Counted from the first letter of the stretch, positions 8,580 to 53,776 are shown. The stretch is 64,000 bases of DNA from an uncultured Pseudomonadales bacterium (GCA_964439805.1 CAYTOI010000001.1:3573-67572); one strand, 5' to 3'. Made by a program: numbers and translations. Notes: generated from the letters alone by a model not told the origin.

Positions 8580-8581
8580 AG

Positions 8582-8655
8582 TAGCTGGGGCGAGACTCGA
8601 ACTCGCGCTCTTCGGGATATGAATCCGATGCTTTAACCAACTAAGCTACCCAGCC
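8582..8655 (-). tRNA. tRNA with CAT anticodon (elongator Met most likely; Ile2-lysidine type not excluded)
   Basis: Reverse complement folds as cloverleaf: acceptor GGCTGGG/CCCAGCT (G1-U72), D arm GCTT/AAGC, anticodon arm TCGGA-TTCATAT-CCCGA, T arm GCGAG-TTCGAGT-CTCGC; no encoded CCA. Confidence 0.8.
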
Positions 8656-10462: not shown

Positions 10463-10475
10463 TTTATCATTGATG

Positions 10476-10549
10476 TGGGCCGACCTGGATTCGAACCAGG
10501 GACATCGAAGGTATAAGCTTCGCGCTCTAACCAGCTGAGCTATCGGCCC
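10476..10549 (-). tRNA. tRNA-Ile with TAT anticodon (decodes AUA)
   Basis: Reverse complement GGGCCGATAGCTCAGCTGGTTAGAGCGCGAAGCTTATACCTTCGATGTCCCTGGTTCGAATCCAGGTCGGCCCA: 7-bp acceptor, canonical D and T arms (GGTTCGAATCC), anticodon loop CTTATAC. Confidence 0.8.
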
Positions 10550-10611: not shown

Positions 10612-12933
10612 TCACAGCTTCGACCTTCTCTCTATCTCCTCTTCTACCTCATCAGCATCTCTCCCAAACTTTAATCTAGACAGTTCTTTTACCATCTTAG
10701 CCACTTCTGGACTACCAGCGGCTTTTTCTGCCTTAAGATCTCTACCGACATTCATCGAAAAAGGAGGAACCGGAGTACCATTAATAATTGTTTTAACATA
10801 GATATTTTGAGCTGGAACGTTACCCAGATCAGCTTCGTTAAACACAGGTTCAAAATCCTTAACCAGTATTTGAGCATCTTGAACACCTACTCTGTAGGTC
10901 ATCAAGGTACCGGTATTCCCAAAGATAGCATCTCTTACTTGCTGATCCAGCTGACTCACAAACTGGTTAGCCATAATTAACCCCATGCCATACTTTCTAA
11001 CCTCAGAAAGCATCTGGGCAAAATCTGGGGTGGCAAAGTTTTGAAACTCGTCGATATAAAAGTAAAAAGGTCTTCGTTGTTCCTTTGGAGTATCCTGTCG
11101 AGAAAGTGCCGCCGCCAAAATTTTTGGCACCACTAGGTTACCCAAGAAACTAGAGTCTTCTTCTCCCAACAAACCCTTAGCAAGTTTCAAAAACACAATT
11201 TTCCCAGTATCCATGGCATCTCTAAAATTTAGAGTACTCTTGGCCTGACCAATGATATTACGAATCATTTTGTTTGTAACAAAGCGACCAAACTTAGAAG
11301 AAATATAGTCCAAGGTCTCACTCTTATGAAAATCACTTGTTTGAGCTATCTGATCAGTCCAGTATCGTCGAACTATTGGATCTTTAACCAAAGGAAGAAT
11401 CTCTTGAACGTATTTGGGATCAGTTAAGACTCTGTTTACTTCCACAAAAGTTGCCCCGGGCACACAACCAACGGTAAGCATGGCGTTACGCACAGAATGC
11501 TCAAACCTGGCTCCAACCATACCAGTTCTATTCGGATCAAACAGCTTATACATCAAGTTAATAATTGCCGAAGCCACCTGATACATCTCGTCATAATTCA
11601 AAACTTCCATGATATTAAAGCCTACAGGTCTTTCCTTATCAGATGGATCAAACAGAACAACATCTTCAGCTCTCTCTGGTGGAACTAGTTCTAGTAACTC
11701 TTCAATACCATCACCATGAGGCTCCATAAAACAAAGTCCTCTTCCCGCTCTCATGTCTTGAATAATCATCGACTTCAAAAGTTCAGTTTTACCTGTACCA
11801 GTTCTACCTATGATGTACATGTGCTTCATACGGTCTGTTTCACCCATATAAATGTTTCGCTCTTGACCTCTATATACAGATCTTCCTAACAACATTCCTT
11901 CAGAAGGAAAACCACCAGTTGCAGGGGCGCTCTTCGCCGTCAGCCAATAAATGTGTGGTGTCTCGATAGTTTTGTTAGGCAAATGCCAAACCGCCGCCAA
12001 TTCATCTGTCGACAATACTGAGTTGTTTCCCCACATGTTCTGATATCGATAAATAATATCAAGCATGAAGGAGTGCTTAAACTTAATTTTGTTACTACTA
12101 AAACTGTTTTGATTGCTATTAAACTGAGAAAAAACTCCTTTAACGTTGCTTAAATTCGCCTTGGCTGTTTCTCCATTCGGAGAAATACTAACAAGTCTTA
12201 TACTGGTCAAAAAACCCTGCTTACCACACTTATTTGTAATTGCTTCCAGTTCCTGGGGATTCATCTTAAACTTGGCTTTTTCAGGATCAGATTCGTCTTT
12301 CTTCAATTTGGAGACATAGCCCAGTCCAGACTTGGACCACTCACTTTCAGCCGGAGAAATCACTATTTGTACAATCATCGCTTCGTCATCGCTAAACTTT
12401 GCAAGAGAAGAAGTAAGTGAAGATAAAAAGTCTACCGGCATTTCCTTAAACGATTTAAGTGGCTTAAAACTCTCATTTTTTAGCACCAATTCAGCAAACT
12501 CAACTTTTGTGTCTTTATAAAAGACATTGTATTCATCCACCTTCAAAACTTGAGAGCCGGGATAAGTTCCAACAACCATTTTTTCAATCAGCTCTACATT
12601 GTTTTTATGACAAGAAATATAAAACCTAATATCCTCCTTTTTACCTACAATTTCCAAAGACAAGTGTTGTTGTGCTGCAAACTTCTGCCAAAAACCACCT
12701 TTTTTAAGGGAATACAAAGAACTAAACATTTGTTCCACCGCCTCTACTTTTATCTCATTATCTTTTGGCACGGCTATCTCCAAAAGTACAAAATTCATAC
12801 TAACCTCTTCCCTATTTCTAAACCGAAGCCAAATCACAAAAATCATCCAACAAAAAACAATCAAGGCTGTGATTATTAAGATTCCAAAACCCAAAACTGC
12901 CAAATAAAGCATCAGGTCTCCAGTATTAATCAT
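10612..12933 (-). CDS. type IV secretion/conjugation-type P-loop ATPase (VirD4/TraG coupling-protein-like or VirB4-like)
   Basis: 773 aa; two N-terminal TM helices; Walker A IIGRTGTGKTELL; Walker B-like FYIDEFQNF; RKYGMGLIMANQFVSQLD motif typical of FtsK/HerA-superfamily T4SS ATPases. Confidence 0.55.
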   Translation of the reverse strand: MINTGDLMLYLAVLGFGILIITALIVFCWMIFVIWLRFRNREEVSMNFVLLEIAVPKDNEIKVEAVEQMFSSLYSLKKGGFWQKFAAQQHLSLEIVGKKEDIRFYISCHKNNVELIEKMVVGTYPGSQVLKVDEYNVFYKDTKVEFAELVLKNESFKPLKSFKEMPVDFLSSLTSSLAKFSDDEAMIVQIVISPAESEWSKSGLGYVSKLKKDESDPEKAKFKMNPQELEAITNKCGKQGFLTSIRLVSISPNGETAKANLSNVKGVFSQFNSNQNSFSSNKIKFKHSFMLDIIYRYQNMWGNNSVLSTDELAAVWHLPNKTIETPHIYWLTAKSAPATGGFPSEGMLLGRSVYRGQERNIYMGETDRMKHMYIIGRTGTGKTELLKSMIIQDMRAGRGLCFMEPHGDGIEELLELVPPERAEDVVLFDPSDKERPVGFNIMEVLNYDEMYQVASAIINLMYKLFDPNRTGMVGARFEHSVRNAMLTVGCVPGATFVEVNRVLTDPKYVQEILPLVKDPIVRRYWTDQIAQTSDFHKSETLDYISSKFGRFVTNKMIRNIIGQAKSTLNFRDAMDTGKIVFLKLAKGLLGEEDSSFLGNLVVPKILAAALSRQDTPKEQRRPFYFYIDEFQNFATPDFAQMLSEVRKYGMGLIMANQFVSQLDQQVRDAIFGNTGTLMTYRVGVQDAQILVKDFEPVFNEADLGNVPAQNIYVKTIINGTPVPPFSMNVGRDLKAEKAAGSPEVAKMVKELSRLKFGRDADEVEEEIERRSKL

Positions 12934-45181: not shown

Positions 45182-45934
45182 ATGACCTGCCCTCAATGCT
45201 CACAAACCCTGAGCACTCTAGAAATCTACACCACTGATGGTAAAGACAAAATAATTGAAGAATGCCTAAATTGTGGAGGTCATTTTTTGGAAAACTACTT
45301 AGTAAATTTCATATCAGTAGAGACAGCGAGAAACATTGACTCTGTTCTCCCAAAAACAAAAAACCAAAGTATTGGCGACATAAAATGCCACAAGTGTGGG
45401 CAACAAATGTTTGCCATTTCAGAAGAACTACCCAATACTGTTACCGCCTACAACTGCCCAAATGGACACGGTGACTTTTTCCCTAAAGACCAACTCCTAC
45501 TTTTCAAAAAAGCTCAAGAAGCAAAAATTAACTATCATAAGCTTTGGGGCATACCTATTAAAACCGTTTTTGCTGTAATTATTCCTCTTTTTATTGTTTT
45601 TTCCTCAGTTACCATCTTACCTTCGGTAGTAAAAGAACTAAACAAAAACCAAGACGAAAGAGTCAAAGCATCAGAAATTTTAACTACTCCACTTATCACC
45701 CCGCTGTCTGATTCTGAAGTTTTAATTTCTTTTTCTACAATCAATTTGGTTGCTACCGACATTATTTTTACAAGCGGAATGCAAAAAACCTTAACCGTTT
45801 CAGCCAAGCCAGACAAAAACCATCTTGTGGGTGTAAAATATCTTCCTCCAACCACCACCTTTAAATACATGATTGTCATAGACCCCAAAGGCAAAAACAT
45901 CAGAACTTCCGAATACACCTTCTCCACCCCCTAA
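45182..45934 (+). CDS. hypothetical zinc-ribbon membrane protein
   Basis: 250 aa; two CxxC pairs N-terminal, one TM, extracytoplasmic C-terminal domain. Confidence 0.4.
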   Translation: MTCPQCSQTLSTLEIYTTDGKDKIIEECLNCGGHFLENYLVNFISVETARNIDSVLPKTKNQSIGDIKCHKCGQQMFAISEELPNTVTAYNCPNGHGDFFPKDQLLLFKKAQEAKINYHKLWGIPIKTVFAVIIPLFIVFSSVTILPSVVKELNKNQDERVKASEILTTPLITPLSDSEVLISFSTINLVATDIIFTSGMQKTLTVSAKPDKNHLVGVKYLPPTTTFKYMIVIDPKGKNIRTSEYTFSTP

Positions 45935-45999: not shown

Positions 46000-46773
46000 A
46001 TGCAATATAATTCCCTCATGCCCAAACGAGTCCTCACCCCCTACGAAAAAAACATTCTTACCAAAAATCATTTCGATTTAAGTGACCCCCTGCTACAAAC
46101 AGACATCCCCGTAGAATATCTTGTCGGCAAAGCTGAGTTTCGAGGTAATGACTTTTTTGTCACAAAAGACACCTTAATTCCCAGAATCGAGACCGAACAA
46201 CTGGTAGATTTAGCTCTCGACAATATTATTAAAAACTTCCCTCCTGACAAAAAAATAATCATTACTGATCTTTGCACTGGCTCTGGCTGCGTAGGTATTT
46301 CACTTGCTCTAGAACTCCTCAAAAAAAACTACAATTTTCATATTTATTTTTCTGATATTTCTTCAAATGCTTTGCAAGTAGCCAAAAAAAACTTTGAACA
46401 TTTATTACCCAATCATCAAGAACTGGCAACATTTATTGAGTCGGATCTTTTTGCTAGTTTTCCTGAAAACGTTAATATCGACTTGGTAGTCGCAAACCCC
46501 CCATACATCCCCTCTCAAAGAATAAAAACACTAGATAATTCTGTTAAAGATTACGAACCCATAATTGCCTTGGACGGCGGTGTAGACGGACTATCTTTAA
46601 TAAATAAAATTGTTACTGATTTACCAAAAATTCAAAACAACAAAGTCAATGCCATTTTGGAAATTGACGAAAAACACAACCTTAAAGCCATTAAAAAAAG
46701 TGAAGGGTTAAACCCTTCACTAATTAAAGACTCTTTCGGTAATAACCGATTTCTATCTCTTCTTTTTCTTTAA
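46000..46773 (+). CDS. prmC: release factor glutamine methyltransferase PrmC/HemK family
   Basis: 257 aa; NPPY motif VVANPPYIP; SAM-binding DLCTGSGCVG. Confidence 0.8.
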   Translation: MQYNSLMPKRVLTPYEKNILTKNHFDLSDPLLQTDIPVEYLVGKAEFRGNDFFVTKDTLIPRIETEQLVDLALDNIIKNFPPDKKIIITDLCTGSGCVGISLALELLKKNYNFHIYFSDISSNALQVAKKNFEHLLPNHQELATFIESDLFASFPENVNIDLVVANPPYIPSQRIKTLDNSVKDYEPIIALDGGVDGLSLINKIVTDLPKIQNNKVNAILEIDEKHNLKAIKKSEGLNPSLIKDSFGNNRFLSLLFL

Positions 46774-46977
46774 GACTTTCTTCTTGGTTTTTGCAACCTG
46801 TGTTTTCACTTTTGCTACTCCAGCTTTACCTTTTTTTACTACTTTTTTTACTTCACTAACTACTTTATTTCTATTTTCTTTATCGGAAAGAAACATTCCC
46901 GCGACTCCAGCAACGACACCTACTACGGCGGCGCCTACAGCGGCAAACAGATTCATGTTATTTTTTTTGGCAGACAT
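46753..46977 (-). CDS. small Lys-rich hypothetical protein with N-terminal hydrophobic segment
   Basis: 74 aa ORF; low complexity. Confidence 0.3.
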   Translation of the reverse strand: MSAKKNNMNLFAAVGAAVVGVVAGVAGMFLSDKENRNKVVSEVKKVVKKGKAGVAKVKTQVAKTKKKVLKKKKR

Positions 46978-47042
46978 TTTTTCTTGCTAACTTTTAATAA
47001 TTTCATTATGACACAAAATACTTTTCTCTGCAAAATCAGGCC

Positions 47043-47073
47043 AAAAAAAGTCCCCCTACCGAAGTAGAGGGAC
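47043..47073 (-). terminator. intrinsic terminator closing the GC-rich island operon
   Basis: Minus strand reads GTCCCTCTAC-TTCG-GTAGGGGGAC followed by TTTTTTTGG, 13 nt after vWA stop. Confidence 0.6.
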
Positions 47074-47085
47074 GAAACACTAAGA

Positions 47086-47910
47086 CTAAATATTTGTAAA
47101 GAAATTGGAATTAACGGGTGCCTGCTGGTTTTGCATTCCCTGGGACTTCGCACCCATACTGGAGCTTACCAACATAAGAGCACGCGTAATGCCGCCCATC
47201 GACCTTTCAACTGTAACAATGTTTCCGTCAGGAATTCCAGCATCTAGTGCCACCTGACGAAAATCTGTTTCATTACCAATGCCTACAAAAGCTATTGTAA
47301 AGTGAGGCTTGCTGTTAAGTTCGCCTAACAGACGACGTACGTCATCATTGGTCCGAACCGCGACAATGTTGGGGTGATATTCACGACCATCCGAGAGGAT
47401 CACTGTTACTTCCTGAACCCCAGTCGCCCCGTAGCTAAAAGCTGAAGCACCAAAGGTTGAGGTCGCTATGACACCGTCATAAATGCCTTCATAAAGTGGC
47501 GTCCAACCATCAGGAATATAATCCACAGATGTTAGCTTTTGGCAATCCTGAACATGAACAAAATCGCGGATAACGCGAACATTTTTCATTCCACTCAAAA
47601 TACTAAAAACGGTAATCCGCACATAAATCTCTTGCCCCGTCTTTTTTCTCATCTTTTCAATATCTTCAAGCATCGCATTTACAGCATTGATCACCACATC
47701 TTCATAGCCAGACAACGATCCTGTAACATCAATCACCAAATTGAAAACCAAAGGAAGCATCGACTCCATAAGAGGAATTTGAACCCCAATAGTTTTTGGT
47801 ATGCCACTGCCGTGTAAATTTGCAAGCAATGTTTGCGATGATGCTGGAGTCAAATGTCCACTTGCTGCAGCCTGTTGAATAGCCAAAGAAACTTGATCTT
47901 GATCGCTCAT
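47086..47910 (-). CDS. von Willebrand factor A domain protein (TerY-like)
   Basis: 274 aa; MIDAS-type DVTGSLSG motif; Rossmann-like alternating pattern; GC-rich island. Confidence 0.65.
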   Translation of the reverse strand: MSDQDQVSLAIQQAAASGHLTPASSQTLLANLHGSGIPKTIGVQIPLMESMLPLVFNLVIDVTGSLSGYEDVVINAVNAMLEDIEKMRKKTGQEIYVRITVFSILSGMKNVRVIRDFVHVQDCQKLTSVDYIPDGWTPLYEGIYDGVIATSTFGASAFSYGATGVQEVTVILSDGREYHPNIVAVRTNDDVRRLLGELNSKPHFTIAFVGIGNETDFRQVALDAGIPDGNIVTVERSMGGITRALMLVSSSMGAKSQGMQNQQAPVNSNFFTNI

Positions 47911-47962
47911 GTTAATCTCCTTTTTATTGGGAGAGAATCAGATTCTCTCCCAAAAATAGTTT

Positions 47963-48940
47963 TTATCCGATCGGATCAGTGCTCTTAACGAGCTTCAATC
48001 CGTAAACTGTGGACAAAGCCTCAAACGCCTGCTTCGCCATATCTTCAAAACCACCAACAGGAGAAGTGCAATCTTCCATAATTCGGATGCGGGACAAAAT
48101 ATCCGATGCGTCATTCTTAAAATAACGAATAATGGAATAAATTGTTTCCAGTACACAGTGGCTACTCGCCTCGCCAGCAATGTAGATCAGATCACAGGTT
48201 TTCAAATCCAATAGAAAATCTTCATCGATACCTGAGTCTTTATCGCCAGCAAATTCTACTTCGCCTTCAACAATAGAGTAGTTCTCGTAAACTTCTCCAG
48301 CGCCCTTAACCTTAAACTTCGGCTGAGATTTACGAGCAATTGCATGAGCAAAAATTGCTTCATACAAAGTCGGTTCAATGGCTTGTTCTGGCGTTCCAAG
48401 CATGCAGTGATTGGCCCAAACCATCAAGTTCTTCTTTTCAAAATCCCCTGCACCAGTGCTGGCTTTTTTACCAAACTGCTCCAACATGGTTAAGTAATAC
48501 TCACTCCAGAGCATACTCTTACCCTTTTTGTATTCATACTGAAAATCAAAGATCGCCTTAACTTTTTTATCCTTCAGATCTTGCAATGTCACAACCGTAA
48601 AGTCGTTCAGGGGTTGACCCTTATCATCGACCCACCAATCCGGGAAAAAGATCTGAAATGGCAAATGGGAATCCATACTTACCGCGATCCGGGTAATTTT
48701 CGCCATATTCTTCAAAATCCAATCGACGATCCGGATCATGTCTTCAATTGCTCCAGGAACACACAGATCACGACCTTTTTCAATAAAGCCGAGCTGAGGA
48801 TCAACCAAAAGGAGCATCACTTTCAACTTGTCTTTCGAGTAGTTTTGAAGGTTTAAAGATCTCCCGTATTTCTTGGCCATTTTCAAATCAGGGTAACGCA
48901 AAGTTCCAACCAAATTCGGATCATAAAATTTTGTATTCAT
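47963..48940 (-). CDS. isochorismatase-family cysteine hydrolase (nicotinamidase-like)
   Basis: 325 aa; LLLVDPQLGF (catalytic Asp region) and AGEASSHCVLET (catalytic Cys). Confidence 0.65.
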   Translation of the reverse strand: MNTKFYDPNLVGTLRYPDLKMAKKYGRSLNLQNYSKDKLKVMLLLVDPQLGFIEKGRDLCVPGAIEDMIRIVDWILKNMAKITRIAVSMDSHLPFQIFFPDWWVDDKGQPLNDFTVVTLQDLKDKKVKAIFDFQYEYKKGKSMLWSEYYLTMLEQFGKKASTGAGDFEKKNLMVWANHCMLGTPEQAIEPTLYEAIFAHAIARKSQPKFKVKGAGEVYENYSIVEGEVEFAGDKDSGIDEDFLLDLKTCDLIYIAGEASSHCVLETIYSIIRYFKNDASDILSRIRIMEDCTSPVGGFEDMAKQAFEALSTVYGLKLVKSTDPIG

Positions 48941-48962
48941 GTTTTCTCCTTTTTATTATTTT

Positions 48963-50837
48963 TTAGATTACCAGGTAATTTACCTGTTTCTCACGAATTA
49001 CCAAAAAGTGTTTTCTACCACCTAGGTGAACCAACTTGTCATTAGCCTCTACCAATCTTTCTGTTTTTGGAACCAAAGTAAAAGTATTTTTTCTCAAGTC
49101 CTCCACTATCAAACCAGAATCATCTTGCCAATATATTTCCCCGTCTTCATAGGCAGTTCTGTGAACCTCAGATGCCGGCAGTTTTGCCAACAAGTGAGCG
49201 CTCTCAAAAATCGACTGTCCAAACAGATCAAAAATCTCAGTCAAAACAGTCATTTTCCCGTTTCGGTTAACAACTCTACGCAAACAAACCGTCTCAGTAC
49301 CGAACAACGCAACTGTCTCTCGCAGAGAATCTCCACTATTGAGTTCAGCTTGTTTCAAACTAAAACGTCTTTCTTTGTGAATTAATTGAAAATGGTATTT
49401 GTTAAACAAACGAGAAAGGGTCAATATCTTCTGTCCTGTCGTATCTGACCAAATCCAAGTTTCTTGTTTTGATACCGTAGCTGGCAAAACTTTCTCTAAC
49501 ATTCTGCCATTACTTACATAACCTAGTAGTAACTTGCTTCCAGACTGTCTTAATAAACCCAGTGAAGTTCCTCGAAAAACAGTTTGCCTGTTTCCCAAAA
49601 ACATTTCTGAGCTGCTAGTAATCCACGACTGACCAGGAACACTTATGTGAGTCAGGTATATCATTTCCGTATCAATCTGATTAACAGCAAGGTATTCGTC
49701 CCCCACCATTTCAAATCGATAAGAAAAATTCAAATCCAAGTCCACAAAAACCTTTACGGGTTTACCGTTTCCAGGTCGAATTGTCAAATAATAACCACTT
49801 TTTTCTCGAGATACCACATAAAGATTACCAGACTGAAAACGAGCAAATAGTATTTCTCCATTGGTTTTTATCAGGTTTTCATATAAATATGTCGGCTGAA
49901 AATTAACCATTGGAGTTTTATATGTACATTTCGGACAGGCCTTTCTTGTTTTTGGATAAAACAAGCCACAGCTTCCGCACTCAATCAAAGAAGATTGATA
50001 TGCATCTAGCATTGTTAATTGTATTTCCTCATACTGATGCTTTTCAAAAACATTTGCAAATTTTTCTAGCAGTTCATCCGAAACAGAATCCGGATGATTT
50101 GCAAGCGATGTTTGCTGAACACCTTTATTTAAATACCAAATACCTTTTGCGGCCCTCTCTCGAAAATCCAAGTACTTCGGGTGAATCTGCGAATAGTGGT
50201 GAATATTAAACAAGCTCCAAAAGAGCATCGTCCAGTAGCCATACCAATCAGACTCTTCCGTATACTTAACTCTTCCTGAATTTGCTTGAGAATATAGGTC
50301 CGGACAAAGAAAATACTCAGTCCAAACAGGGCACCTTATCCCATTAATTTGCCATGCATCTGTGTCATACCAATAAACGTCTACACCTCGTTTTCCAAAA
50401 ACAAAAGATGCGTTTCTACCAGACACGTCTCCAGCGATTATGTTGTTTTTATGAATGATCGACAAATCCCGACCAACAATTTTCATAATTTCTACAACAG
50501 TTGGTGTAAAAATACGCAAAGTTGTCCTCAGAGATTTGTTAAACAAAACTCCAATCTCACGAAAACTACTAGGCATTTCTACCATCCCGTAACCCCTAAG
50601 CTCTCCTCCACCGTTTGGTCGAGTACTCAAAGGAATCTTGGGAAACAAAAAACGATCCGGTAAATTTGGTTTATTTTTTAACAAATATTGTATTTTTTGC
50701 AATTGGTCTGGCTCAATACTCTTTAAAACTTTTACCGCCCAGCCACTTTGTCTTACCACTACGGCTTGGCCTCCATCTCCCAAAGTAACACCATTGTTTA
50801 AAAAAGGGTCACTACCCAAGTACAACCTGTCAGTCAT
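48963..50837 (-). CDS. Ser/Thr protein-kinase-like protein with central zinc ribbon and large C-terminal domain
   Basis: 624 aa; Gly-rich loop LGDGGQAVVV, Lys AVKVL, catalytic-loop-like IIHKNNIIAGDVSGRN, then CGSCG...CPKC zinc ribbon. Confidence 0.55.
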   Translation of the reverse strand: MTDRLYLGSDPFLNNGVTLGDGGQAVVVRQSGWAVKVLKSIEPDQLQKIQYLLKNKPNLPDRFLFPKIPLSTRPNGGGELRGYGMVEMPSSFREIGVLFNKSLRTTLRIFTPTVVEIMKIVGRDLSIIHKNNIIAGDVSGRNASFVFGKRGVDVYWYDTDAWQINGIRCPVWTEYFLCPDLYSQANSGRVKYTEESDWYGYWTMLFWSLFNIHHYSQIHPKYLDFRERAAKGIWYLNKGVQQTSLANHPDSVSDELLEKFANVFEKHQYEEIQLTMLDAYQSSLIECGSCGLFYPKTRKACPKCTYKTPMVNFQPTYLYENLIKTNGEILFARFQSGNLYVVSREKSGYYLTIRPGNGKPVKVFVDLDLNFSYRFEMVGDEYLAVNQIDTEMIYLTHISVPGQSWITSSSEMFLGNRQTVFRGTSLGLLRQSGSKLLLGYVSNGRMLEKVLPATVSKQETWIWSDTTGQKILTLSRLFNKYHFQLIHKERRFSLKQAELNSGDSLRETVALFGTETVCLRRVVNRNGKMTVLTEIFDLFGQSIFESAHLLAKLPASEVHRTAYEDGEIYWQDDSGLIVEDLRKNTFTLVPKTERLVEANDKLVHLGGRKHFLVIREKQVNYLVI

Positions 50838-51593
50838 TTATACCTCCAATCTTTTCAGAAAAATCACAGAAACATTGTCTTTTGTATCCGAACGAATTGT
50901 TGAAATTCTATTAAGACACATCTGCAAACTAAAATTTGAATTTGAATATGCATTTAGCTCATCCATTAAATGAGGGTAAGAAGATAAACCGTCCGAAGAT
51001 ACTCCTGCAACTCTTACAGAATCAGCAGAAAGAATCTCCGTCTCGAATCCATTTGGCAACAAAGATTGTATCTCTGCCCCAACTTCTCCATAACTCTCAT
51101 ATAGGTGATACGCAGGGTATCGAGGTCTGTTTAAACTTTCGGGGTTTAAAACTTTATGAACAGAATCATTTAAATAACTCAATCCGTCTCCCGCCCAAAA
51201 GTAAACAATCTCTGACTCATCAGCCAAAATACCAATCGTAGTACACATCAAATACAAAGAAATAAAGTCTAGTTTTTCATCATTATCACTCAAAAACTGA
51301 GACTCAACTTGCCACCAAAGATAATCAATGTATTCTGGAAAAAGTAACGAAGGAATTAAGCTTGGCTTTACACCTTCAAGTAACATTGCTCGAGATCTAC
51401 GAATCAAAAAAAGGTTGGACAAATGAGCTCCAACTTCGGACTTTAAATTTAATTTTAACAGTCCATGGCAGCCATCGTTAATAATACCAGCAGCCACAAA
51501 ACTATTTGTCCAGACACTTGCAACGTCTTGGTTATTCCTGCCTTCATGAAAATACGTCAAACCTTGTGCTGAAGCCGATGTAATCTTCCACAT
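50838..51593 (-). CDS. PP2C-family Ser/Thr protein phosphatase
   Basis: 251 aa; GRNNQDV...INDGCHG, FWAGDGLSYL, VSSDGL motifs matching PP2C metal-binding blocks; AGGAG RBS 5 nt upstream. Confidence 0.75.
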   Translation of the reverse strand: MWKITSASAQGLTYFHEGRNNQDVASVWTNSFVAAGIINDGCHGLLKLNLKSEVGAHLSNLFLIRRSRAMLLEGVKPSLIPSLLFPEYIDYLWWQVESQFLSDNDEKLDFISLYLMCTTIGILADESEIVYFWAGDGLSYLNDSVHKVLNPESLNRPRYPAYHLYESYGEVGAEIQSLLPNGFETEILSADSVRVAGVSSDGLSSYPHLMDELNAYSNSNFSLQMCLNRISTIRSDTKDNVSVIFLKRLEV

Positions 51594-51661
51594 ACCATCT
51601 CCTTATATTTAATCTTAATGTCAAGGTTCTAATACCCCACACTTAGTGTATTTATGACACC

Positions 51662-51689
51662 ATTATACCTCACAACTCTACTGTGTCAA
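51662..51689 (-). promoter_or_regulatory. consensus sigma70-type promoter driving the island operon
   Basis: Minus strand reads TTGACA-cagtagagttgtgagg(16 nt)-TATAAT, ~70 nt upstream of PP2C start. Confidence 0.55.
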
Positions 51690-51710
51690 GACGGGTATTA
51701 TAACCTCAAT

Positions 51711-52988
51711 TTAGATGGAAACAAGGCTAATTATGCGGGTTAGTAGGGGCTGAGACCCTTCTATTACCTCGCCAGCCTCAGTAGTAATGTATACGTTTTG
51801 CTTCGCCGTAACCTTAAACAGACCAAAAACGTTGTAGGTTTTATCACCTACTACCTTATAGGACAATTCCGATCCATAATTTTCCAAGGTTGGGACACTA
51901 TCTTTGTTCAATTTTTCAAAAGTCTTCAAATCAACAGCCTCCTTAATTGCCTGCATCGGGAGCACCTTTAGCTCCTTTTTACCATCAAATGTCTCTACAA
52001 AAATTTTCTGACTATCAATATTTACATGCACGGGACTATCTGTAGTTACCACCACCCCATCCTGAACCAAGGCAAAAAGATTATCACTTGTTACGTTTAG
52101 TTTTACCTTTTTGTTATCCAGTATTTTGTTTAGTGTCACCTCAGCACTTCTCAAATCATCTTCTTTAATATTAAGAATGCTCTGCTCTGAGTTTTGAGCA
52201 GCCAAAACCACATTCCCTCCCTGCAATCTATAAAAGATATCTACATCTCCTGTCAAAACGTTGTTGTCCAACTTATCCTCTTTAATAGTTGGCACCTTCA
52301 AAGCTTGTGAGGGACTAGGCTTGCTTATAAACTCCCCTCTACTCACTTCTTGAATTTTATTTTGTATAGATTTAATTACACTCCTTTTGGGTGGAGAATA
52401 ATAAGTTTTGTTTTCTTCTGTCACTGACTTCTCCGAAACAGGTACATAAACAATTACTTTTTCAGTTGAATAAATTGTTTGAGTTTGAACTGTCCCTGAT
52501 TGCAAACTGGGGTGATCAAAGACCTCAGTATCTTTAGCTGTTTTATACTCAATATTGCTAGTCGGGTTTACAGTTGTATTGTCTTCGGCGGGCACTGAAT
52601 TTCTTCCCTGTAAACGCTGAGCAATGGTAGCTCTTGGTAATACTACAACATCGGTAATTGTTGGTTCTACAGTAATTACTGAGGTCACCGTAACACTATC
52701 AGTAACAGCAGCAGTGACAGTAGATGTTATTGTGGCGGAAACATTATTGTCCTGATTGTTATTTTGATTATTATTTCCGTTATTGTTCAAGCCACCGTTA
52801 TTCCACCAGCCAGAATTATCATTATCAGAATGATCACCAAGAACTTTCGTATCGTTTTTCCCAAAAAAACTTTGCCCAAAAAATCCTAGTCCCAAAACTA
52901 AGCACAAAACCAAAAAAACATTGTTCTGAAAAAGTTTAATTCTTTTTCTTTTTGCCATGTAAAATCTTATCACTTTTGGGAATTTCAC
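51711..52988 (-). CDS. hypothetical secreted/membrane-anchored protein with Asn-rich low-complexity region
   Basis: 425 aa; N-terminal TM, NNNGNNNQNNNQDNN tract, Thr/Val-rich repeats. Confidence 0.4.
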   Translation of the reverse strand: MKFPKVIRFYMAKRKRIKLFQNNVFLVLCLVLGLGFFGQSFFGKNDTKVLGDHSDNDNSGWWNNGGLNNNGNNNQNNNQDNNVSATITSTVTAAVTDSVTVTSVITVEPTITDVVVLPRATIAQRLQGRNSVPAEDNTTVNPTSNIEYKTAKDTEVFDHPSLQSGTVQTQTIYSTEKVIVYVPVSEKSVTEENKTYYSPPKRSVIKSIQNKIQEVSRGEFISKPSPSQALKVPTIKEDKLDNNVLTGDVDIFYRLQGGNVVLAAQNSEQSILNIKEDDLRSAEVTLNKILDNKKVKLNVTSDNLFALVQDGVVVTTDSPVHVNIDSQKIFVETFDGKKELKVLPMQAIKEAVDLKTFEKLNKDSVPTLENYGSELSYKVVGDKTYNVFGLFKVTAKQNVYITTEAGEVIEGSQPLLTRIISLVSI

Positions 52989-53011: not shown

Positions 53012-53776
53012 ATGACTCTTTTTTACGTTTTTCTCTCTTCTGTTGTTGAAGGTTTAACTGAATTCTTACCCATCTCTTCTACTGGACACCTTATCATTCT
53101 CAACCATCTATTTAATATAAAAAGCACCCCTCTCCTGTCATCATTTGATATTTTTATACAGCTAGGCGCAATTTTGGCTATCGTAAATCTTTACTACAAA
53201 GAATTGCTTGAAAACAAAAAACAAATTCTAAATCTACTCGCTTCTTTTATCCCCTCTGCCATTGTGGGTCTAATTTTTTACCCGTTTATAAAAAGTTACC
53301 TTCTCGACAACATTATTATTACCACCGCAGCTCTTTTTGTTGGCGGATTAATCATCTTTACTCTCCCATCCAACAAAACAAACAAGAAAGACTTATCCTA
53401 CTTTGACTACTTCAAAATCGGTCTCTTCCAGTCTCTTTCCATAATCCCAGGCACTAGTAGAGCCCTTATGACTATTATTGGTGGATTATATTCCGGCTTA
53501 AATTTAGTAGAAGCCATAAAATACTCCTTCCTTCTGGCCATCCCTACCATTGGAGCCGCCACCGCACTAGACCTCTTTAAGAATAGAGACATTATCTTTA
53601 GTGATTTAGGAAATATTAAGCTTTTTACTATTGGTTTTTTAATATCATTCATCACTGCAAAACTAACAGTAAATGCTTTTTTAAATTTTTCCCAGAAAAA
53701 CGGACTGAGATTTTTTGGATTTTATAGAATAGCTCTATCAGCAGTTCTATTAATATTATTTATTCTGCCTTTATGA
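53012..53776 (+). CDS. uppP: undecaprenyl-diphosphatase UppP/BacA
   Basis: EGLTEFLPISSTGHL signature; start at internal Met (ORF could begin at 52952). Confidence 0.8.
   Translation: MTLFYVFLSSVVEGLTEFLPISSTGHLIILNHLFNIKSTPLLSSFDIFIQLGAILAIVNLYYKELLENKKQILNLLASFIPSAIVGLIFYPFIKSYLLDNIIITTAALFVGGLIIFTLPSNKTNKKDLSYFDYFKIGLFQSLSIIPGTSRALMTIIGGLYSGLNLVEAIKYSFLLAIPTIGAATALDLFKNRDIIFSDLGNIKLFTIGFLISFITAKLTVNAFLNFSQKNGLRFFGFYRIALSAVLLILFILPL

Follow-up and report, generated by a model that had tools for sequence, protein, structure and literature searches.

What does a TerY-P-like phosphorylation trio control when a predicted nicotinamidase is encoded in its midst? The question is raised by four co-directional open reading frames (ORFs) on the minus strand of the 64,000-nucleotide stretch of DNA analyzed here (the window), from a CPR bacterium with a tiny genome; the ORFs lie between one promoter and one terminator and encode a PP2C phosphatase, a kinase, a nicotinamidase, and a vWA protein, with the following layout.

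51662..51689, minus strand: promoter, sigma-70 type, TTGACA-16-TATAAT, 12 of 12 consensus positions
51594..51661, minus strand: 5' leader with an AAGGAG ribosome-binding site (51604-51599), from sequence reading
50838..51593, minus strand: gene 1, predicted PP2C (PPM) Ser/Thr phosphatase, 251 aa, from profile and motifs
48963-50837, minus strand: gene 2, kinase plus zinc ribbon plus propeller, 624 aa, from ORF call, profiles, and fold
49998..50837, minus strand: Hanks-type Ser/Thr kinase domain, gene 2 residues 1-280, YegI/TerY-P-kinase clade
49920..49988, minus strand: four-cysteine zinc ribbon, gene 2 residues 284-306 (C287, C290, C301, C304)
48963..49886, minus strand: seven-bladed beta-propeller (WD40-like fold), gene 2 residues 318-624 plus stop codon
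47963..48940, minus strand: gene 3, predicted PncA/Pnc1-type nicotinamidase (isochorismatase superfamily), 325 aa, from profiles and active-site residues
47927..47953, minus strand: stem-loop with a perfect 12-bp stem between genes 3 and 4, just upstream of the gene 4 ribosome-binding site
47086..47910, minus strand: gene 4, predicted TerY-like vWA protein, 274 aa, from predicted fold, MIDAS, and hhalign
47043..47073, minus strand: intrinsic terminator, 10-bp stem (6 of the pairs GC) and then a T-run (47073-47050)

The ORF ends match exactly the gene coordinates given in a preliminary description of this DNA, and the promoter, ribosome-binding site, and GC-rich terminator hairpin that it had proposed were also recovered. 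The promoter is the sole perfect TTGACA-16-TATAAT match within positions 46500-52200, and the 5' leader matched no Rfam family. The genes had further been described as abutting or at most 25 nt apart. This holds for genes 1 and 2, whose junction reads TAAATG, the stop abutting the start, with an embedded GGAGG, an arrangement kept in eight loci, but not for genes 3 and 4, which are separated by a 52-nt spacer.

Plain Pfam scans of the window proteins returned no match for the kinase, the hydrolase, or the vWA protein, and the window PP2C alone scored 19.7 bits against PP2C_2, below the cutoff of 24. Because these scans did not confirm the family names, family profiles and structure prediction were needed. 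PP2C_2 matched six of six gene 1 family members, with a best E value of 7.6e-12. Across 6 close sequences, the metal-binding aspartates D23, D40, D201, and D239 (in RNNQD, DGCH, SDGL, and DN motifs) never vary; they are near-invariant in 14 PP2C sequences that include distant ones, and gene 1 is predicted to encode an active-looking phosphatase. Its profile aligned with E. coli PphC (hhalign 94.4%, E=8.5e-8); against the PP2C of R478 the value was 22.9%, that is, without detectable closeness.

Against E. coli YegI, the kinase family profile scored 120 bits (E=9e-30 after scaling to 1.8e9 proteins), YegI residues 20-359 aligning with profile positions 18-336, a span that covers the kinase and zinc-ribbon region; its score against the TerY-P kinase of R478 was 46.6 bits (E=1.5e-7). 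The hhalign comparison of the kinase gave 97.8% across 294 columns and extended into the zinc ribbon. The four ribbon cysteines are invariant in alignment A1 and at least 90% conserved in a 60-sequence wide family, and the region can be aligned to C...CPxC in the TerY-P kinase of R478 as well as to a DUF35 zinc ribbon (6esq). The kinase is predicted to be active. What had been described as an uncharacterized C-terminal domain of this protein resolves to a beta-propeller, with the seven four-stranded blades that mark the WD40 type. Mean pairwise identity is 26.5% in the propeller versus 34.6% in the kinase domain; the propeller is moderately more variable, a pattern unlike that of a hypervariable sensor.

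For gene 4, the AF2 model (pLDDT 84.9, pTM 0.89) was searched with Foldseek against the PDB, and the best 50 matches listed were nearly all vWA or I-domain chains, each with a probability of 1.0. The MIDAS residues D61-x-T63-x-S65, T137, and D174 are invariant, distant loci included. The gene 4 profile aligned with an alignment of TerY1/2/3 plus YegL (hhalign 97.5%, E=7.5e-12, 181 columns), whereas two non-TerY vWA proteins of R478, used as a control, gave 2.5% and 9.5%. Fold prediction and profiles together identify gene 4 as encoding a predicted TerY-like vWA protein whose MIDAS site is intact. A helical N-terminal extension of about 55 aa is clade specific; position 21 is Ser or Thr in all 22 sequences compared, and the same is true of positions 24 and 50 in 21 of the 22.

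Because the kinase, PP2C, and vWA protein are each sequence-related to authentic TerY-P or Yeg proteins (R478; E. coli YegI, PphC, and YegL), the TerY-P-like reading of the triad in the preliminary description holds at the level of sequence. As defined by Anantharaman, Iyer, and Aravind in 2012, in the summary given in PMC11090510, the TerY-P triad comprises a TerY-like vWA protein, a PP2C, and a Ser/Thr kinase with a C-terminal zinc ribbon. A TerY-like vWA protein, a PP2C-like phosphatase, and a kinase with a C-terminal zinc ribbon, linked in one operon, were all found here. The triad of R478, which lies next to terW/terZ, likewise combines vWA, PP2C, and kinase-zinc ribbon in one operon, and its kinase and vWA protein are sequence-related to those of the module. 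The gene order differs, however, being vWA-PP2C-kinase on R478 and PP2C-kinase-X-vWA in the module, where X is the nicotinamidase and is always inserted. Unlike that of R478, the module kinase carries a propeller after the zinc ribbon, and the module vWA protein departs from TerY-P in having its N-terminal extension and in lacking the TerY-C domain. The module also differs from TerY-P in being without ter genes, McrBC, CoCoNuT, or other DNA-processing partners: the usual context of ter genes and DNA-restriction or -processing modules, typical but non-defining, was not found among the neighbors of the module in the window or in loci L001-L008 and L012-L018.

Among characterized proteins, the best sequence matches came from the E. 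coli K-12 yegL-pphC-(yegJ)-yegI cluster (the YegI and PphC scores given above). YegI is an active autophosphorylating kinase that is dephosphorylated by PphC (bioRxiv 10.1101/819920). The module differs from this cluster too in gene order, with the fourth gene interposed, and whereas the C-terminal half of YegI is double-pass membrane, gene 2 has a soluble propeller there. TM-like segments were found in none of the four proteins, which points to a cytoplasmic location. An actinobacterial theme described by Kaur et al. in 2020 (PMC7159879, section 29) combines a kinase bearing a zinc ribbon plus a domain rich in beta strands, a PP2C, and a vWA protein that stands alone, with a link to GAP1-N2 GTPases. 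The module shares, by description, this three-protein architecture, including the beta-rich domain after the zinc ribbon, but occurs in Patescibacteria rather than Actinobacteria and contains a nicotinamidase that is absent from the Kaur description; among neighbors of the modules examined, no GAP1-N2 or other GTPase-family match was found.

Among defense-system models, PADLOC gave no match at E<=0.1 for 26 close-family members and weak, generic kinase-model matches only for distant versions. As a positive control, the TerY, PP2C, and kinase of R478 and E. coli YegI and YegL were searched and matched no TerY-P model either; with authentic TerY-P proteins missed as well, nothing can be concluded from the negative PADLOC result.

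The remaining protein is that of gene 3. Previously called an isochorismatase-like hydrolase, it does fall in the isochorismatase superfamily but is specifically nicotinamidase-like rather than generic. As a single sequence it matched nothing in Pfam or NCBIfam; its family profile matched yeast Pnc1 (2h0r, E=4.7e-6) and Mycobacterium tuberculosis PncA (3pl1, E=2.7e-5) in the PDB, and hhalign against Pnc1 gave 96.4% (E=1.2e-9). The catalytic triad D47-K212-C262, aligned to D8, K122, and C167 of Pnc1, and the metal ligands D90/H92/H178 are invariant in 40 sequences. Gene 3 thereby shares with PncA and Pnc1 the Asp-Lys-Cys triad, the Asp/His/His metal site, and the WPxHC..GT motif, its own WxxHC..GT stretch, WANHCMLGTPEQ, aligning to WPPHCVSGTPGA in PncA and WPVHC in Pnc1. 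In contrast to both, it is longer by about 110-140 residues owing to insertions, reaches no Pfam model, and is embedded in a signaling operon. Several sources label its relatives "nicotinamidase." We predict that gene 3 encodes a PncA/Pnc1-type nicotinamidase, with catalytic and metal sites complete.

The nicotinamidase might simply share a transcript with a triad that regulates something else. Many bacterial STK/PP2C pairs regulate envelope or growth processes, the yeg cluster of the closest characterized kinase has no nicotinamidase, and gene 3 relatives occur alone: in Chloroflexi they are solitary, and the enzyme is therefore able to function outside the triad. Yet in every module examined, at about 25-90% identity and across three named or inferred lineages, gene 3 lies internally, between the kinase and the vWA protein. 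This persistent position is unlikely for a passenger, and we consider such a role very improbable. Nor is the four-gene set an unusual configuration with an extra hydrolase, as first described. It is the family norm, occurring in the same order in close relatives (L001, L004, L005, L007, and L013-L016) and in six of six distant relatives with enough flank (P0158, L017, L018, L023, L027, and L030), and the order persists down to about 25% identity; in one case, L018, the PP2C is fused to the kinase. The wide family comprises 220 cluster representatives at E<=1e-30, most of them full length. All four genes are under purifying selection (dN/dS 0.03-0.28 where calculable).

On balance, we favor the view that the four proteins form a cytoplasmic phosphorylation switch of the TerY-P/Yeg type, in which the nicotinamidase is a conserved partner and the most likely output. 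The propeller and the zinc ribbon would receive the input, which would be a protein or peptide; in the case of the zinc ribbon, it may also be a nucleic acid. The kinase would phosphorylate the vWA protein and/or the nicotinamidase, a candidate phospho-site being the conserved Ser/Thr patch around T21/S24 in the vWA N-terminal extension, and the PP2C would reset the state. By binding an acidic or phosphorylated partner, the vWA MIDAS may hold or release the nicotinamidase, and the output would be an altered conversion of nicotinamide to nicotinate. This conversion is the entry step of Preiss-Handler NAD salvage. It also removes nicotinamide, which as a product inhibits NAD-consuming enzymes, as is established for yeast Pnc1 and Sir2. 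The NAD-salvage genes beside the P0158 module, listed below, support a link to NAD. The link between such a trio and a nicotinamidase, and hence NAD recycling, appears to be undescribed and suggests what these trios may control.

The genomic position of the module bears on what might trigger the switch. The preliminary description had an island inserted between prmC and an unrelated gene, a view contradicted by six relatives (L004, L006, L007, L008, L016, and L024) in which the same prmC/uppP slot holds the module. Within this slot, close relatives carry strongly differing versions. In L024, the flanks are 62-88% identical, genes 1 and 2 only 23-27%, and the module lies in the opposite orientation, a pattern that points to cassette replacement. 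The corresponding values in L016 are 57-77% for the flanks and 41-51% for the module; in L006, flanks of 62-75% accompany 87-89% for genes 2 and 3 and 55% for gene 4, and in L007, gene 1 alone is at 57%, in a nucleotide-identity trough of 62-68%. Base composition, compared across the 66 ORFs of the window, deviates in part of the module. Gene 4 has the highest GC content (0.436, z=+2.3) and gene 3 the second-highest GC3 (0.451, z=+2.65), but the values for the kinase (z=+0.2) and for the PP2C (z=-0.5) do not stand out from background, so that the GC-rich block described earlier shrinks to genes 3 and 4. Horizontal acquisition of an entire island is likewise at odds with the conserved slot and with composition that deviates in these two genes only; it stands in the weaker form of a slot filled by very different versions.

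Could the module nevertheless be a stand-alone, horizontally acquired TerY-P anti-phage island, with the triad sensing infection and the nicotinamidase in an effector or helper role? The enzyme might, for example, withdraw the nicotinamide that phage need to rebuild NAD+ or lift the inhibition that nicotinamide exerts on host NADases. The kinship of the triad with TerY-P/Yeg proteins and the deviant composition of genes 3 and 4 are consistent with this idea, and replacement of cassettes in a fixed slot, together with shuffling of sub-cassettes, is typical of conflict loci. Moreover, there are reports of TerY-P-like modules acting by themselves as anti-phage systems, and triads occur alongside restriction systems (PMC11090510). 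The version for which phage protection is reported, that of Gao et al. 2020 as reported in PMC11090510, follows the same broad three-gene logic of kinase, PP2C, and vWA protein, but according to that account its kinase ends in an OB fold, whereas in the module kinase this part consists of a zinc ribbon plus a seven-bladed propeller. Against an anti-phage island also speak the conserved slot and the flanks, in which neither the window nor the related loci contain an integrase, transposase, RM, Abi, or other defense gene. In all versions, defense-system matches were limited to weak, generic similarities to kinase models, although PADLOC misses authentic TerY-P too; viral contigs yielded no copy; and a link between nicotinamidase and defense was not found in the literature. 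Finally, a nicotinamidase alone cannot deplete NAD+, and the operon has no NADase. We therefore regard a dedicated anti-phage island as unlikely.

A purely housekeeping role, in which the trio tunes the first nicotinamide-salvage enzyme of NAD-auxotrophic CPR bacteria to nutrient or host signals, seems equally doubtful. In its favor, the P0158 module adjoins nadE, pncB (NAPRTase), a nadD-like gene, and the regulator gene nrtR; all sampled relatives have the module, in a conserved place amid housekeeping genes; and gene 3 is one of a broad family of nicotinamidase-like enzymes that are solitary and apparently metabolic. The purifying selection on all four genes also fits this reading. However, the related loci were all recovered with the module's own proteins, which biases the sample towards carriers, and the NAD-gene neighborhood is confined to P0158: pncB, nadD, and nadE were found neither near the module in the window (motif scan) nor in the other loci. 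For housekeeping regulators, 23-27% identity and an inversion between flanks of 62-88% would be unexpected, as would single-gene swaps. As for the trigger of the switch that we favor, a conflict (phage or host interaction) seems to us slightly more likely than pure housekeeping, given that close relatives have markedly different, partly shuffled versions of the module in a single conserved chromosomal slot.

The spacer between genes 3 and 4 follows a pattern of its own. The stem-loop of the window has counterparts in the same spacer of L007, L001, L005, L014, and L016, which contain GC-rich hairpins of 9-13 bp with differing sequences and energies of -17 to -25 kcal/mol; the hairpin is missing at loci where genes 3 and 4 are separated by no more than 14 nt.

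The module consists of four minus-strand ORFs, which, like their promoter and terminator hairpin, lie where the preliminary description had placed them.

Features of the operon in window coordinates
51689-51662, promoter TTGACA-16-TATAAT, the sole 12/12 consensus match in the region
51604-51599, ribosome-binding site AAGGAG
50838-51593, minus strand, ORF, gene 1 (PP2C)
48963-50837, minus strand, ORF, gene 2 (kinase-zinc ribbon-propeller)
47963-48940, minus strand, ORF, gene 3 (nicotinamidase)
47086-47910, minus strand, ORF, gene 4 (TerY-like von Willebrand factor A [vWA] protein)

The junction between genes 1 and 2 is coupled and is kept in eight loci, and after gene 4 come a GC-rich hairpin of 10 bp and a T-run. 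The claim that all spacers measure at most 25 nt does not extend to genes 3 and 4, which are separated by 52 nt. The description of the block as GC rich applies to these same two genes: among the 66 ORFs of the window, gene 4 ranks first in GC content (0.436; z = +2.3) and gene 3 second in GC3 (z = +2.65), while the composition of the kinase and PP2C genes is at background.

The spacer between genes 3 and 4 holds a perfect 12-bp hairpin (window 47927-47953). GC-rich stem-loops also occur in this spacer in five related loci from other genomes (L001, L005, L007, L014, and L016), with stems of 9 to 13 bp overall. Their sequence varies by locus and their structure is constant (−17 to −25 kcal/mol); read as mRNA, the hairpin lacks a U-run, and spacers of 14 nt or less do not contain it. 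The element may act in intraoperon processing, stability, or attenuation.

Single-sequence scans of the four proteins against Pfam, NCBIfam, PHROGs, and PADLOC gave almost no matches; PP2C_2 fell below threshold, and the notable hit was that of gene 4 to phrog_7371 (E = 5e-8), a family without assigned function. Searches of PDB sequences with family profiles gave no match for the gene 1 and gene 4 families and only marginal kinase matches for gene 2. Identities were settled by family alignments and structure models. Pfam PP2C_2 matches six of six gene 1 family members (best E = 7.6e-12), and all four metal-binding Asp motifs are conserved. Gene 2 retains the G-loop, K36, D137, N142, D158/D160, and a four-Cys zinc ribbon, beyond which its AF2 model (pLDDT 79, about 90 in the C-terminal third) contains 28 strands. 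The gene 3 family profile matches the solved nicotinamidases Pnc1 (E = 4.7e-6) and PncA (E = 2.7e-5). An hhalign comparison with Pnc1 gave 96.4%, using a Pnc1 sequence of which residues 4 to 67 and 86 to 175 agree with the PDB profile alignment. The triad Asp47-Lys212-Cys262 and the metal ligands Asp90, His92, and His178 are invariant across 40 sequences. The structure model of gene 4 is confident (pLDDT 84.9); among the top 50 PDB fold matches listed, nearly all are vWA or I-domain chains, and the MIDAS residues are invariant. A clade-specific N-terminal extension of this protein carries Ser or Thr at position 21 in each of the 22 sequences. Transmembrane-like segments are absent from all four proteins.

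Triads of a kinase, a PP2C, and a vWA protein of the TerY-P/Yeg type occur widely, and some of them confer phage protection. We know of no output or substrate for any of them, E. coli YegI included. TerY-P is defined by a TerY-like vWA protein, a PP2C, and a Ser/Thr kinase fused to a C-terminal zinc ribbon (PMC11090510); the same source describes the phage defense version of Gao 2020 as having an OB fold in place of the zinc ribbon (PMC11090510). The module was compared directly with authentic representatives, namely, the ter region of plasmid R478 and the yegI/pphC/yegL cluster of E. coli. The wide kinase family matched the R478 TerY-P kinase (46.6 bits; E = 1.5e-7), and hhalign (97.8% over 294 columns) extended the alignment into the zinc ribbon. 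The vWA profile aligned with TerY1/2/3 plus YegL at 97.5% (E = 7.5e-12), versus 2.5% and 9.5% for two non-TerY vWA proteins of R478, and the PP2C profile aligned with E. coli PphC at 94.4%. Judged from these comparisons, the window triad is a true though divergent relative of the TerY-P/Yeg triads, and as regards homology the original TerY-P-like reading is correct. Compared with those triads, the module adds two conserved parts, the kinase propeller and an obligate nicotinamidase partner. The literature searchable here contained no report of either part together with the triad, and no paper was found in which such triads, or phage defense, are connected with a nicotinamidase or isochorismatase-type enzyme.

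PADLOC-DB v2.0.0 was dropped as a test of TerY-P membership, since it failed a positive control. It did not recognize as TerY-P the TerY, PP2C, and kinase proteins of R478 (L042, 61238-67465) or YegI and YegL of E. coli K-12 (L043), and the kinases of both gave only weak matches to the PD-T4-6, MkoA, and mad6 models. Because authentic TerY-P is missed, the PADLOC negatives for the module carry no weight, and little should be read into such negatives for TerY-P-like triads.

The preliminary description had treated gene 3 as an extra hydrolase. Word-indexed searches with the kinase and the vWA protein returned only 16 to 18 clusters. An exhaustive profile search yielded 3,475 matches, 1,207 at E ≤ 1e-10 and 220 at E ≤ 1e-30; the best 150 of the 3,475 were mostly 600 to 660 aa long and matched end to end. 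The wide family was scanned with a handmade pattern. In every distant relative with readable flanks, all four genes are present and their order is unchanged; gene 3 is no accessory.

Modules in distant relatives
P0158, products of 254, 635, 308, and 278 aa
L017, same four genes in the same order
L018, 9001-11523, an 840-aa PP2C and kinase-zinc ribbon-propeller fusion, followed by gene 3 and gene 4 homologs
L023, L027, and L030, same four genes in the same order, homology checked with HMMs

The L018 fusion lends support to the idea that phosphatase and kinase are functionally linked. The P0158 module adjoins genes for NadE, NAPRTase (PncB), a NadD-like protein, and an NrtR-type regulator; the NadE, PncB, and NadD steps come after nicotinamidase in Preiss-Handler salvage. 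A motif scan of the window, a crude test, found no other NAD genes. The gene 3 family itself is broader (more than 270 clusters), and a module in Chloroflexi was ruled out for the three gene 3 relatives examined, all solitary genes. The L003 module is intact except for its vWA gene (10612-11713), which a frameshift divides into two overlapping ORFs, 10612-11403 and 11285-11713; this is either a pseudogene or an assembly error. L017 encodes a 527-aa PARP-domain protein of an NAD-consuming family (185-1768) about 6.4 kb upstream of its module, with a cluster of HSP20, Cpn10, ClpS, and AAA chaperone/protease-adaptor genes in between.

The module had also been taken for an inserted island. Its slot runs from the uppP side through the module, a 74-aa ORF, prmC, and a zinc-ribbon protein to beta-CASP, and the same slot holds the module in L004, L006, L007, L008, L016, and L024, all loci having been retrieved through module proteins, such that relatives without the module would go unseen. 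L024 is assigned to Collierbacteria through an identical SufB, and the distant clade is present in Woesebacteria too (L030).

Identity to the window at loci sharing the slot
L024, flanks 62 to 88%; PP2C 23%, kinase 27%; module inverted
L016, flanks 57 to 77%; module 41 to 51%
L006, flanks 62 to 75%; genes 2 and 3 87 to 89%; gene 4 55%
L007, flanks 82 to 97%; genes 2 to 4 85 to 87%; gene 1 57%, with a nucleotide trough of 62 to 68%

All module genes are under purifying selection. As dS was saturated (>1) in most comparisons, it was rejected as a recombination test in favor of dN ratios and identity profiles. The gene 1:gene 2 dN ratio is 4:1 in L007 and the gene 4:gene 3 ratio is 5.8:1 in L006, versus about 1:1 in other comparisons. 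These uneven ratios and the identity contrasts point to replacement of whole cassettes and of sub-cassettes within a fixed slot rather than a recent insertion. The preliminary observation is largely right, and its island and extra hydrolase parts are wrong. Three scans of viral contigs contained no module copy, and no mobile-element or defense genes flank any copy. The swapping of alleles favors a role in conflict, as does kinship with TerY-P, while the stable position, the NAD-salvage neighborhood, and the lack of defense neighbors favor housekeeping control.

The flanks themselves are a recombination patchwork, given their uneven dS versus L007: 0.33 to 0.6 for prmC, the 74-aa ORF, and uppP (window 46000-46977 and 53012-53776) and 1.2 to 1.7 for neighboring genes. 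L014 (CAYHNG010000002.1), whose module matches the close-family profiles, and L016 (CAZPFY010000009.1), whose flanks are 57 to 77% identical to the window, both carry the module in MAGs labeled "uncultured Pseudomonadales"; these labels look wrong.

Co-transcription signals, intact catalytic sites, and persistent four-gene linkage, including one fusion, are directly observed. We propose that the propeller and zinc ribbon serve as input or scaffold, that the kinase phosphorylates the vWA protein and perhaps the nicotinamidase as well, and that PP2C resets the switch. The MIDAS site would mediate binding that gates the nicotinamidase, the output being conversion of nicotinamide to nicotinate. 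Joining a triad to an enzyme with a predictable reaction would make the open question of triad output directly assayable. Ser/Thr signaling would also be tied to NAD salvage in CPR bacteria, which, with their reduced genomes, probably rely on scavenged precursors. A bolder and, in our estimate, unlikely reading is an NAD/nicotinamide-centered CPR immune system, in which propeller and zinc ribbon would sense infection and the TerY-P-type switch would unleash the nicotinamidase, either starving phage-encoded nicotinamide-based NAD+ reconstitution or lifting nicotinamide inhibition of NAD-consuming effectors. If true, this would be the first time that a nicotinamidase is the effector of a defense system and that an output is identified for a TerY-P-type triad. 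A position-fixed locus with swapped contents is also useful for studies of recombination and selection in uncultivated lineages.

Two neighbors were rejected as fifth components. The upstream 425-aa protein (window 51711-52988), which is membrane anchored at its N terminus and has an Asn/Gly-rich stretch, is patchily present and fast evolving (66% identity in L007, where most flanking genes show 82 to 97%; 45% in L016; 27% in L005); it is missing or replaced in other loci, an unrelated NAGPA-family protein standing instead in L015. The 74-aa protein downstream is not related to the 89-aa ORF found after the L017 module. Beside prmC in all syntenic loci lies a 250-aa protein (window 45182-45934) that has a single transmembrane segment and, in its N-terminal part, two zinc-ribbon motifs (Zn_ribbon_TFIIB; E = 3.4e-6). 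Most genes of the 64-kb window are on the minus strand, and between 38000 and 60000 plus-strand GC skew is negative in 87 of 88 profiled windows. In most bacteria, AUA is read by a lysidine-modified CAU tRNA; the window encodes a tRNA-Ile with the rare UAU anticodon (10475-10549), near a tRNA-Met (CAU) at 8581-8655.
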